A stretch of DNA of 64,000 nt, taken from assembly GCF_003334765.1 (NCBI RefSeq), contig NZ_QOWT01000021.1. One strand, 5' to 3'. The position numbers were made by a program, and so were the translations under genes. Below the pieces are notes generated by a model. It was not told where the DNA came from. It worked only from the letters and a program-made list of their open reading frames with translations, and made no database searches. This document shows positions 16,667 through 18,313 of the stretch, piece by piece. This stretch comes from Escherichia coli. GTDB lineage: Bacteria; Pseudomonadota; Gammaproteobacteria; Enterobacterales; Enterobacteriaceae. Within the stretch, counting starts at the first letter, position 1; the number at the start of each line of letters is the position of its first letter.

Positions 16667-17239
16667 ATGAAACTCGTGCACATGGCCAGTGGTTTAGCGG
16701 TTGCGATTGCGTTGGCGGCTTGCGCAGATAAAAGCGCGGATATTCAGACGCCAGCACCGGCTGCAAATACGTCTATTTCAGCAACACAACAACCAGCTAT
16801 CCAGCAACCGAATGTCTCCGGTACCGTCTGGATCCGTCAGAAAGTCGCACTGCCGCCTGATGCTGTGCTGACCGTGACACTTTCTGACGCGTCGTTAGCC
16901 GATGCACCGTCAAAAGTGCTGGCGCAGAAAGCGGTGCGTACTGAAGGTAAACAGTCACCATTCAGCTTTGTTCTGCCATTTAACCCGGCAGATGTTCAGC
17001 CGAACGCGCGTATTCTGTTGAGTGCGGCGATTACCGTGAATGACAAACAGGTATTTATCACCGATACCGTTCAGCCGGTGATCAACCAGGGCGGAACTAA
17101 AGCCGACCTGACATTGGTGCCGGTACAGCAAACCGCCGTGCCGGTTCAGGCCAGCGGTGGCGCAACGACTACCGTACCTTCGACTTCACCAACTCAGGTG
17201 AATCCGTCTTCGGCAGTTCCAGCTCCTACGCAATATTAA
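16667..17239 (+). CDS. ybaY: Predicted outer-membrane lipoprotein YbaY (190 aa)
   Basis: Lipobox LAAC in the signal peptide, followed by a Pro/Ala/Thr-rich low-complexity region. Confidence 0.9.
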   Translation: MKLVHMASGLAVAIALAACADKSADIQTPAPAANTSISATQQPAIQQPNVSGTVWIRQKVALPPDAVLTVTLSDASLADAPSKVLAQKAVRTEGKQSPFSFVLPFNPADVQPNARILLSAAITVNDKQVFITDTVQPVINQGGTKADLTLVPVQQTAVPVQASGGATTTVPSTSPTQVNPSSAVPAPTQY

Positions 17240-17247
17240 GCGACGTT

Positions 17248-17271
17248 AACCCTCTCCGCCCGGAGAGGGTT
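17248..17271. repeat. GC-rich perfect palindrome AACCCTCTCCG-CC-CGGAGAGGGTT (possible bidirectional terminator / boxC-like element)
   Basis: Read directly between the convergent ybaY and atl 3' ends; overlaps the atl stop codon. Confidence 0.6.
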
Positions 17272-17659
17272 AGTAGTTCCAGCGATAACGCTGCAAGTCG
17301 ATTTGCCCGCTTCCCGATACCATCACACCTTCTGCCAGTAATGCCTGTCGCTGACGCTGTAAATCCGGTCCGGTTAGCGAAATTGTGCCGTGGCGATTAA
17401 CCACCCGGTGCCAGGGTAAGGTGCTGCCTTCAGGGAGACGCTTTAACACACCGCCCACCTGGCGCGCGGCGCGGGGCGATCCCGCCAGTTTCGCCACATC
17501 ACCGTAAGTGGTGACATAGCCTTCGGGAATAGCGGCGACGATTTGCCAGACGCGTTGGGGAAATGAATCTTCTTTTTCCATCTTTTCTTCCTGAGGTAAT
17601 TTTTCAGCATAATCTGGAAAAACGCCCGAGTGAAGTCGCATTGCGCAAGAAACCAGCAT
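17270..17659 (-). CDS. atl: Alkyltransferase-like DNA-binding protein Atl (129 aa)
   Basis: Start set at ATG 17657-17659 (MLVSCAMRLHSGVF); MGMT-like HTH fold; the active-site cysteine of true alkyltransferases is replaced (PWHRVV). Confidence 0.9.
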   Translation of the reverse strand: MLVSCAMRLHSGVFPDYAEKLPQEEKMEKEDSFPQRVWQIVAAIPEGYVTTYGDVAKLAGSPRAARQVGGVLKRLPEGSTLPWHRVVNRHGTISLTGPDLQRQRQALLAEGVMVSGSGQIDLQRYRWNY

Positions 17660-17735
17660 CTGGCACGCGATGGGTTGCAATTAGCCGGGGCAGCAGTGAT
17701 AATGCGCCTGCGCGTTGGTTCTCAACGCTCTCAAT

Positions 17736-17849
17736 GGGGGCTCTGTTGGTTCTCCCGCAACGCTACTCTGTTTACCAGGTCAGGTCCGGAAGGAAGCAGC
17801 CAAGGCAGATGACGCGTGTGCCGGGATGTAGCTGGCAGGGCCCCCACCC
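17736..17849 (+). ncRNA. ffs: 4.5S RNA, the signal recognition particle RNA (114 nt)
   Basis: Sequence GGGGGCTCTGTTGGTTCTCCCGCAACGC...GGCAGGGCCCCCACCC recognised; conserved domain IV GGAA tetraloop region; lies in the atl-ybaA gap. Confidence 0.95.
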
Positions 17850-17959
17850 ATTTCTGCCTCCCACCGTTTCGTCAAAAAATCCCAACATGGCTAAACTTTA
17901 ACCACAACTGACGTCGCAAGAATTGTCTGGCTGCGCAGTACGCTTCGGAGGTATGTCTG

Positions 17960-18313
17960 ATGAAGTATGTTGATGGTTTTGTGGTTGCCGTTCCTGCCGA
18001 TAAAAAGGATGCCTATCGGGAAATGGCCGCTAAGGCTGCGCCATTGTTTAAAGAGTTTGGCGCGCTTCGTATTGTCGAATGCTGGGCCAGCGATGTACCG
18101 GATGGCAAAGTGACCGATTTTCGTATGGCGGTGAAAGCGGAAGAGAATGAAGAGGTTGTCTTTAGCTGGATTGAATACCCTTCAAAAGAGGTCCGCGACG
18201 CTGCTAATCAAAAGATGATGTCGGACCCACGGATGAAAGAGTTCGGCGAGTCCATGCCGTTTGACGGCAAGCGAATGATCTATGGCGGATTCGAGTCAAT
18301 CATCGACGAATAG
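17960..18313 (+). CDS. ybaA: DUF1428 family protein YbaA (117 aa)
   Basis: ORF with plausible RBS; sequence matches YbaA. Confidence 0.88.
   Translation: MKYVDGFVVAVPADKKDAYREMAAKAAPLFKEFGALRIVECWASDVPDGKVTDFRMAVKAEENEEVVFSWIEYPSKEVRDAANQKMMSDPRMKEFGESMPFDGKRMIYGGFESIIDE

Follow-up and report, generated by a model that had tools for sequence, protein, structure and literature searches.

The atl (ybaZ) gene of Escherichia coli: an alkyltransferase-like lesion sensor with a probable start codon inside the annotated reading frame

The alkyltransferase-like proteins (ATLs), described between 2005 and 2010, are defined by a tryptophan in place of the cysteine of the alkyltransferase (AGT) active site. 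Atl, the product of the Escherichia coli gene ybaZ (atl, also written eATL), is a named protein whose biochemistry and genetics are already on record, and it is the member from E. coli with which the bacterial ATLs were founded as a group.

The activities of these proteins are summarized in a review by Tessmer and Margison (PMC10779285), which cites Pearson et al. 2005 and 2006 both for the tight binding of the E. coli ATL to O6-alkylguanine in DNA and for its lack of alkyltransferase, glycosylase, or endonuclease activity. In the same review, the E. coli ATL is described as staying inactive when the tryptophan of its PWHRV motif is changed to cysteine, and the tyrosine and arginine finger found in AGTs and ATLs are said to serve base flipping. 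ATLs (Schizosaccharomyces pombe Atl1 and/or E. coli ATL) bind the UvrA and UvrC proteins of E. coli directly, and UvrA and ATL co-translocate on DNA (PMC10779285); a figure legend in the review gives a KD of about 100 nM for the binding of UvrA by E. coli ATL and states that UvrB is not bound. Atl1 passes lesions to the eukaryotic nucleotide excision repair (NER) machinery, not to UvrABC (PMC10779285). As cited in two further articles (PMC7835731, PMC6449902), the ybaZ product boosts NER of O6-alkylguanine adducts (Mazon et al. 2009) and guards against mismatch-repair-mediated toxicity (Mazon et al. 2010). Pearson et al. 2005, listed in PMC10779285, name inhibition of MGMT by the E. coli ATL in their title.

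This report concerns a window of 64,000 nucleotides from an E. coli genome (contig NZ_QOWT01000021.1 of assembly GCF_003334765.1), within which all positions are given. One of its genes is the E. coli atl (ybaZ) gene, an already known locus and an ordinary member of the ATL family. Taken as a whole, the evidence makes it very probable that this gene encodes a single AGT C-terminal domain acting as a lesion sensor for NER, with translation probably beginning at position 17581.

The atl locus and its neighbors

The atl open reading frame (17270..17659, minus strand) translates into 129 codons with no internal stop, followed by a stop codon; the product reads MLVSCAMRLHSG...LPWHRVVNRHG...RYRWNY (also written MLVSCAMRLHSGVFPDYAEKLPQEEKMEKEDSFPQRVW...STLPWHRVVNRHGTISL...RYRWNY). 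Its 390-nt CDS is 100% identical to ybaZ/b0454 of E. coli K-12 MG1655, whose product is named “DNA base-flipping protein” in the K-12 record, and the surrounding 6 kb differ from MG1655 at only 3 positions. The gene order is amtB, tesB, ybaY, ybaZ (atl), ffs, ybaA, and pdeB, and the 1.8-kb region holding atl is found in 5425 of 5426 complete E. coli genomes. An initial annotation of the window had assigned atl to the full interval 17270-17659. The identity of the gene stands, whereas its 5' boundary, judged by comparison with related genomes, was probably drawn too far upstream. The features of the locus are as follows:

17247..17272, no strand: perfect 12-nt inverted repeat TAACCCTCTCCG/CGGAGAGGGTTA, located between ybaY and atl, which are convergent
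17270..17581, minus strand: conserved atl (ybaZ) CDS, 103 codons plus TAA, starting MEKEDSF and holding a single PF01035 domain; this is the PGAP span
17582..17659, minus strand: N-terminal extension of 26 codons in the K-12 gene model (MLVSCAMRLHSGVFPDYAEKLPQEEK; K-12 476,294..476,371), likely to be promoter and 5' UTR DNA and not coding sequence
17587..17592, minus strand: AGGAAG, resembling a Shine-Dalgarno sequence, with 5 nt between it and the ATG at 17581
17606..17614, minus strand: candidate -10 element of atl, GATTATGCT, proposed from conservation
17641..17659, minus strand: conserved block ATGCTGGTTTCTTGCGCAA with the annotated ATG and the palindrome TTGCGCAA in it, located 16-34 bp ahead of the -35 hexamer of ffs
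17675..17703, plus strand: ffs promoter-like site TTGCAA-17 nt-GATAAT, from a sigma-70 scan
17736..17849, plus strand: ffs, the 4.5S RNA of the signal recognition particle, mapped onto the window from the K-12 annotation

The essential ffs gene is divergent from atl and lies 76 bp from its annotated start. That the two genes are direct neighbors, as the initial annotation had proposed, is confirmed by the K-12 annotation and by a match to the Rfam family RF00169 at 17744..17840 (68.1 bits, E = 1.2e-14). The promoter-like site ahead of ffs is the only sigma-70-type match in 17150..17960; it agrees with the consensus at 9 of 12 positions, where 0.3 matches are expected by chance, and both of its hexamers are invariant across seven genera. 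Each of the eight other Enterobacteriaceae loci that were sampled (S. enterica, S. bongori, Citrobacter, Raoultella, Klebsiella, Enterobacter, Kluyvera, and Buttiauxella) also has atl and ffs side by side and divergent. The Klebsiella pair has about 550 bp of extra DNA, including a 135-aa ORF, between its two genes. A functional link between atl and ffs was considered and rejected, as nothing beyond inherited synteny speaks for it and the Klebsiella genes are spaced apart by the extra DNA. Regulation of atl by MarA, RamA, or SoxS, for which a Salmonella ChIP table has an entry “ybaZ”, was likewise set aside: the motif, GCCCTGCCAGCTACA, lies inside ffs (17827..17841), and the ChIP signal over this abundantly expressed RNA gene could be non-specific.

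At the other end of the gene, atl converges with ybaY. The right arm of the inverted repeat between them ends with the atl stop codon. No T-run follows this repeat on either strand, and the repeat is absent from the terminator scan list. In MG1655, ExcludonFinder reports ybaY-ybaZ as a convergent pair with overlapping transcription.

The start codon of atl

Two gene models have been given for the same DNA. The K-12 model begins at 17659 and yields 129 aa, whereas the RefSeq PGAP annotation of strain H3 spans 17270..17581 and yields a 103-aa “MGMT family protein” (WP_000409911.1). Comparison among enterobacteria argues for the shorter model, and the main native product is probably, with some margin for doubt, the 103-aa protein translated from the ATG at 17581 (Met27 of the long form). 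This methionine is invariant in 17 enterobacterial proteins and nine loci, while the residues that precede it in the 17 proteins are poorly conserved and include indels. A GGA or GGAG core stands about 6-9 nt before the ATG in all nine loci, irrespective of the state of the upstream frame. Upstream of the Met27 position, the loci of Enterobacter, Raoultella, and Klebsiella have no in-frame start, and in Enterobacter a stop codon occurs six codons before that position.

The substitutions in the two parts of the long frame also differ in kind. Between E. coli and S. enterica, the core (codons from Met27 onward) differs at 11, 6, and 53 first, second, and third codon positions, mostly third positions, and of its codon changes 47 are synonymous and 13 non-synonymous; this pattern indicates that the core is under strong purifying selection. 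The corresponding differences in the extension between E. coli and Salmonella are 11, 6, and 7, and its codon changes comprise 2 that are synonymous and 13 that are non-synonymous. The contrast between extension and core is significant by Fisher's test for both codon changes (p = 5.6e-6) and position bias (p = 1.3e-4), and among the four genomes with an open long frame, the substitutions found within the extension have no codon periodicity. The extension shows no coding-type selection, and native Atl is therefore probably 103 aa long.

The alternative is that the 129-aa product from 17659 is real and that its 26-residue tail is a fast-evolving feature specific to Escherichia, Salmonella, and Citrobacter. 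The K-12 annotation agrees with it, and E. coli, S. enterica, S. bongori, and Citrobacter all have an open long frame whose ATG occupies one and the same position. The chance of a 26-codon frame staying open is about 0.27, however, so an open frame in three related genera is weak evidence either way. Besides the aperiodic and mostly non-synonymous changes described above, the surroundings of the upstream ATG argue against its use. Inspection of the sequence ahead of the ATG at 17659 found no Shine-Dalgarno motif, in contrast to the AGGAAG that precedes 17581. Only 16 bp separate the upstream ATG from the -35 hexamer of ffs, so there is no room for a promoter, and this ATG falls within a block of DNA that is conserved even when it is out of frame. 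The solved ATLs lack such a tail, their sequences beginning at what corresponds to residue 30-31, and PGAP likewise gives 103 aa for strain H3. A genuine 129-aa product is thus unlikely. The papers found to mention ybaZ contain no start-site data. An E. coli variant of 128 aa whose extension is scrambled (P0010) was excluded as evidence; it comes from a single assembly and looks like the result of homopolymer sequencing errors.

If translation starts at 17581, the annotated extension would be DNA upstream of the gene, and two elements within it are candidates for regulatory sites. The first is a possible -10 element of the atl promoter. In the alignment, GATTA is invariant or nearly so across seven genera, with variable flanks, and GATTAT (17609..17614), which precedes the ATG at 17581 by about 25 nt, is kept even where it is out of frame. 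A consensus sigma-70 scan of 17150..17960 gave no match on the atl strand; the candidate went unscored because the best pairing on that strand, TTCACT-17-TATGCT, agrees at only 8 of 12 positions. It is plausible, from conservation and position, that GATTAT/TATGCT is the -10 element of atl. The second element is the block ATGCTGGTTTCTTGCGCAA, which is kept in seven genera. One of these is Enterobacter, in which the block is out of the atl frame; the block therefore appears to be conserved as DNA and not as codons. It may be a regulatory site that atl shares with the divergent promoter of ffs. The combined proposal, in which the 129-aa model of K-12 and of UniProt-style records is wrong at its 5' end, Atl is a cysteine-free protein of 103 aa, and both the GATTAT promoter and the block ATGCTGGTTTCTTGCGCAA lie inside the annotated extension, is favored by this evidence, although not strongly.

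The refinement of the start is the sole addition made here to what is recorded for this gene. If it is correct, any biochemistry on a 129-aa construct would have been done with a non-native N-terminal tail, and the refinement may concern both the expression of “full-length” eATL and the reading of the atl-ffs intergenic region.

Domain, active site, and handling of lesions

The core of Atl, 103 aa in length, is basic (calculated pI about 9.9) and consists of a single recognizable domain. The Pfam match is to PF01035, the DNA-binding domain of O6-methylguanine-DNA methyltransferase; it lies at residues 33-112 and spans model positions 2-81 of 81 (E = 5.1e-27), and the Pfam search of the 129-aa form found no domain besides it. 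Homology to relatives begins at residue 30-33 of the 129-aa form, and the N-terminal domain of AGTs is absent by Pfam, alignment, and Foldseek. Across all PDB sequences, the best matches are themselves ATLs (vpAtl, 2kif, E = 1.8e-28; S. pombe Atl1, 3gva, E = 1.7e-17), whereas true AGTs match more weakly (Mycobacterium tuberculosis OGT, 6e-10; human AGT, 3e-9; the C-terminal domain of E. coli Ada, 1sfe, 1e-6).

Structure prediction agrees with this placement. An AlphaFold2 model of the 103-aa form, built with a 100-sequence alignment drawn from 16063 relatives, has a pLDDT of 96.4 and a pTM of 0.87. A run on the 129-aa form with a shallow alignment of 17 enterobacterial sequences gave a pLDDT of 50.6, which is uninformative on disorder of the extension. 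In a Foldseek search of the PDB, vpAtl ranks first (TM 0.88, rmsd 1.7 Å), followed by Atl1 in free and DNA-bound form (TM 0.80-0.86) and then by about 35 AGT structures matched over their C-terminal half only (TM about 0.7 by query, about 0.45 by target). The MGMT fold named in the initial annotation is thus upheld by PF01035, by the matches to solved ATLs, and by AlphaFold2 and Foldseek together; since the AGTs are matched over the C-terminal half alone, the term is correct if the C-terminal domain is meant.

The active-site motif and the base-flipping residues are encoded in two segments:

17399..17416, minus strand: PWHRVV motif (P82-W83-H84-R85-V86-V87), read from the sequence
17411..17413, minus strand: TGG codon of Trp83, opposite Ogt Cys139 and Ada Cys321
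17462..17506, minus strand: helix-turn-helix segment TYGDVAKLAGSPRAAR, from Tyr52 (17504..17506) to Arg66 (17462..17464), located by alignment

With E. coli ogt and ada taken from the K-12 record, BLASTP aligns Atl to Ogt at 37% identity (E = 6e-15), with Trp83 opposite Cys139, and to Ada at 37% identity (E = 2e-11), with Trp83 opposite Cys321. A multiple alignment concurs, giving PWHRV or PWFRV in ATLs versus PCHRV in Ogt, Ada, and M. tuberculosis OGT. The substitution of tryptophan for the catalytic cysteine, which had been read from the motif, is therefore confirmed by pairwise and multiple alignment with Ogt and Ada, and the active-site column holds no conserved cysteine in Atl. The DNA-binding residues, by contrast with the acceptor, are retained. 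Tyr52 and Arg66 (Tyr26 and Arg40 in 103-aa numbering) are invariant among Atl, Ogt, Ada, M. tuberculosis OGT, vpAtl, and Atl1, as they are in the 100-sequence alignment; in 149 aligned sequences, the arginine is present in 145 and the tyrosine in 136. His84, Arg85, and Glu110 are likewise kept in the alignments, including that of the 17 enterobacterial proteins.

These features suggest a course of events at the lesion. With its helix-turn-helix, Arg66 finger, Tyr52, and PxHRV pocket retained, Atl would find O6-alkylguanine and flip the base into the pocket. As Trp83 stands in place of the alkyl-accepting cysteine, the lesion would be flipped but the alkyl group would stay on. The stable Atl-lesion complex would then be recognized through UvrA and UvrC, so that the lesion enters NER, and the same complex would also screen the lesion from futile cycles of mismatch repair. 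According to the reviews cited above, this same protein lacks transferase activity, binds lesions, interacts with UvrA and UvrC, and enhances NER. As binding without repair and flagging for NER are stated there for E. coli ATL, the interpretation offered in the initial annotation is the established one. The analysis turned up nothing that speaks against the identity of the gene or against this mechanism.

A different emphasis would make lesion masking the main role of Atl, its tight binding to O6-alkylguanine blocking both mismatch repair and Ogt/Ada, with NER enhancement secondary. The protection from mismatch-repair-mediated toxicity attributed to eATL (Mazon et al. 2010, via PMC6449902) and the inhibition of MGMT announced in the title of Pearson et al. 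2005 (via PMC10779285) fit this view. The reported binding of UvrA (KD about 100 nM) and UvrC and the co-translocation with UvrA (PMC10779285), together with the enhanced NER attributed to the protein (Mazon et al. 2009, via PMC7835731 and PMC6449902), speak against it, and masking as the principal role is improbable. Masking and recruitment of NER are compatible, and both may be at work; the screening of lesions from mismatch repair complements flagging for NER rather than competing with it.

The NER sensor reading also holds against the proposal that Atl is a genuine suicide alkyltransferase using a nucleophile other than the canonical cysteine. His84 and Glu110 belong to the AGT catalytic network and are kept in Atl, and of the NCBIfam models only TIGR00589, the “ogt” superfamily model, is passed (53.2 bits versus a cut-off of 46.4). 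The more specific equivalog models are missed by a wide margin, however, both for Ogt (NF007626, 44.3 bits versus 192) and for Ada (NF011964, 37.1 bits versus 345). A search of the 103-aa core for cysteine found none, and the sole cysteine of the long form, Cys5, lies inside the non-conserved extension. With the E. coli ATL and its Trp-to-Cys mutant both reported inactive (PMC10779285), the proposal is effectively refuted.

In its family, Atl groups with other proteins that carry the tryptophan. A search of 1.84 billion representative proteins at E <= 1e-3 recovered 16063 relatives. Among the representatives of the 148 closest 50%-identity clusters, the cysteine column holds Trp in 138 and Cys in 4, and the commonest motifs are PWHRV (98), PWQRV (12), and PWYRV (10). 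Atl has the PF01035 fold in a single domain of about 100-130 aa, the Trp that usually replaces Cys, and the Arg finger and Tyr, all of which mark the ATLs; it lacks the acceptor cysteine, the equivalog score, and the two-domain architecture of Ogt, Ada-C, and MGMT. Membership in a Trp-bearing clade, Ogt and Ada scores below the cut-offs, and purifying selection therefore point to a functional ATL and not to a decayed ogt. The missing AGT N-terminal domain and catalytic cysteine are what a functionless pseudogene, decaying from a truncated ogt paralogue, would have in its favor, but the selection pattern of the core relative to Salmonella (47 synonymous to 13 non-synonymous changes, with third-position bias) refutes that idea, against which also stand the near-universal presence of the 1.8-kb region in E. 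coli genomes, the Trp kept by most of the closest clusters in a family whose relatives number more than 16000, and the phenotypes and biochemistry in print (PMC10779285, PMC6449902).

Comparison with described systems

The E. coli proteins Ogt and Ada are true O6-alkylguanine-DNA alkyltransferases. The C-terminal domains of both are homologous to Atl through PF01035 (37% identity over 63-82 residues) and have the helix-turn-helix, the Arg finger, the Tyr, and the His-Arg-Val of the active-site loop in common with it. In contrast to Atl, which has Trp83 and is without the N-terminal domain, they possess an acceptor cysteine (Cys139 in Ogt, Cys321 in Ada) and an N-terminal domain.

Among the solved ATLs, Atl1 of S. 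pombe (PDB 3gva, 3gx4, and others) shares PWHRV, the Arg finger, and the Tyr with E. coli Atl. It is a eukaryotic protein, 37-39% identical to Atl, and has short insertions in the C-terminal part. The protein vpAtl of Vibrio parahaemolyticus (PDB 2kif, 2kim) is 52% identical to Atl over 98 residues and has the same single-domain architecture with Trp for Cys; its motif is PWFRV, with Phe where E. coli Atl has His84. The described system that corresponds in full is Atl/YbaZ of E. coli K-12 (b0454), which is the same gene with the same neighbors (ybaY, ffs, ybaA, and pdeB). Between K-12 ybaZ and the atl gene of the window, the annotation alone differs: 129 aa in K-12 versus 103 aa in the PGAP annotation of strain H3.

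The annotated amino-terminal extension of atl and the conserved block upstream of ffs

The K-12 gene model of atl (ybaZ) begins 26 codons upstream of the 103-aa conserved core, and two nested features occupy this region:

17582..17659, minus strand: first 26 codons of the atl/ybaZ gene model in the K-12 annotation
17641..17659, minus strand: DNA block ATGCTGGTTTCTTGCGCAA, kept in seven enterobacterial genera

Between E. coli and Salmonella, codons 1-26 carry two synonymous and 13 non-synonymous codon changes, and the differences in this stretch are even across codon positions. The comparison reveals no coding-type selection in this part of the K-12 model. An in-frame start within 17582..17659 is missing in some of the genera compared, and in strain H3 the PGAP annotation gives a 103-aa atl product starting at 17581. 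Conservation of the ATGCTGGTTTCTTGCGCAA block is independent of reading frame; across the seven genera, the block is retained both where it is in frame with atl and where it is not. It includes an 8-bp palindrome, TTGCGCAA, and is situated 16-34 bp upstream of the ffs -35 hexamer. The block is a candidate regulatory site that may serve either ffs or atl.

Annotation of ffs and the site labelled ybaZ

Mature 4.5S RNA is 114 nt long (17736..17849), and the Rfam small-SRP model matches just 97 nt of it, at 17744..17840. Because the model covers only this portion, ffs annotated in PGAP style is shorter than in the K-12 annotation, at 97 nt in strain H3. A MarA/RamA/SoxS site with the motif GCCCTGCCAGCTACA has been reported by ChIP in Salmonella under the label "ybaZ" (PMC10268841). 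The exact GCCCTGCCAGCTACA sequence occurs at 17827..17841 on the minus strand, within ffs and outside both atl and its promoter. ChIP signal at ffs, an abundantly expressed RNA gene, could be non-specific in origin.

The convergent ybaY-atl junction

The 30-bp gap separating the convergent genes ybaY and atl is filled by an inverted repeat that includes the atl stop codon:

17247..17272, ybaY-atl gap: perfect 12-nt inverted repeat TAACCCTCTCCG/CGGAGAGGGTTA

No T-run follows the repeat on either strand. In MG1655, ybaY-ybaZ is listed by ExcludonFinder as a convergent transcriptional overlap (PMC12288877).

Variation of the locus across genera

The ffs-atl distance is 163-173 bp in most other genera, whereas in Klebsiella quasipneumoniae (L007:786..1501) it is 715 bp, measured from the ffs Rfam model start to the atl ATG; Raoultella is intermediate (269 bp). 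The Klebsiella interval contains a called ORF (135 aa), without a Pfam match. Beyond ffs, the called gene in the Salmonella loci encodes a CSS-motif/EAL (pdeB-like) protein, and no ybaA-sized gene is among the calls there. In contrast to E. coli, in which ybaA and pdeB occupy this position, the Raoultella, Klebsiella, Enterobacter, and Kluyvera loci (L006, L007, L008, and L009, respectively) have two small ORFs (71 aa and 82-85 aa) that lack Pfam matches, overlap by 4 bp in their called coordinates, and, at the Raoultella, Enterobacter, and Kluyvera loci, are followed by a GntR/aminotransferase regulator.
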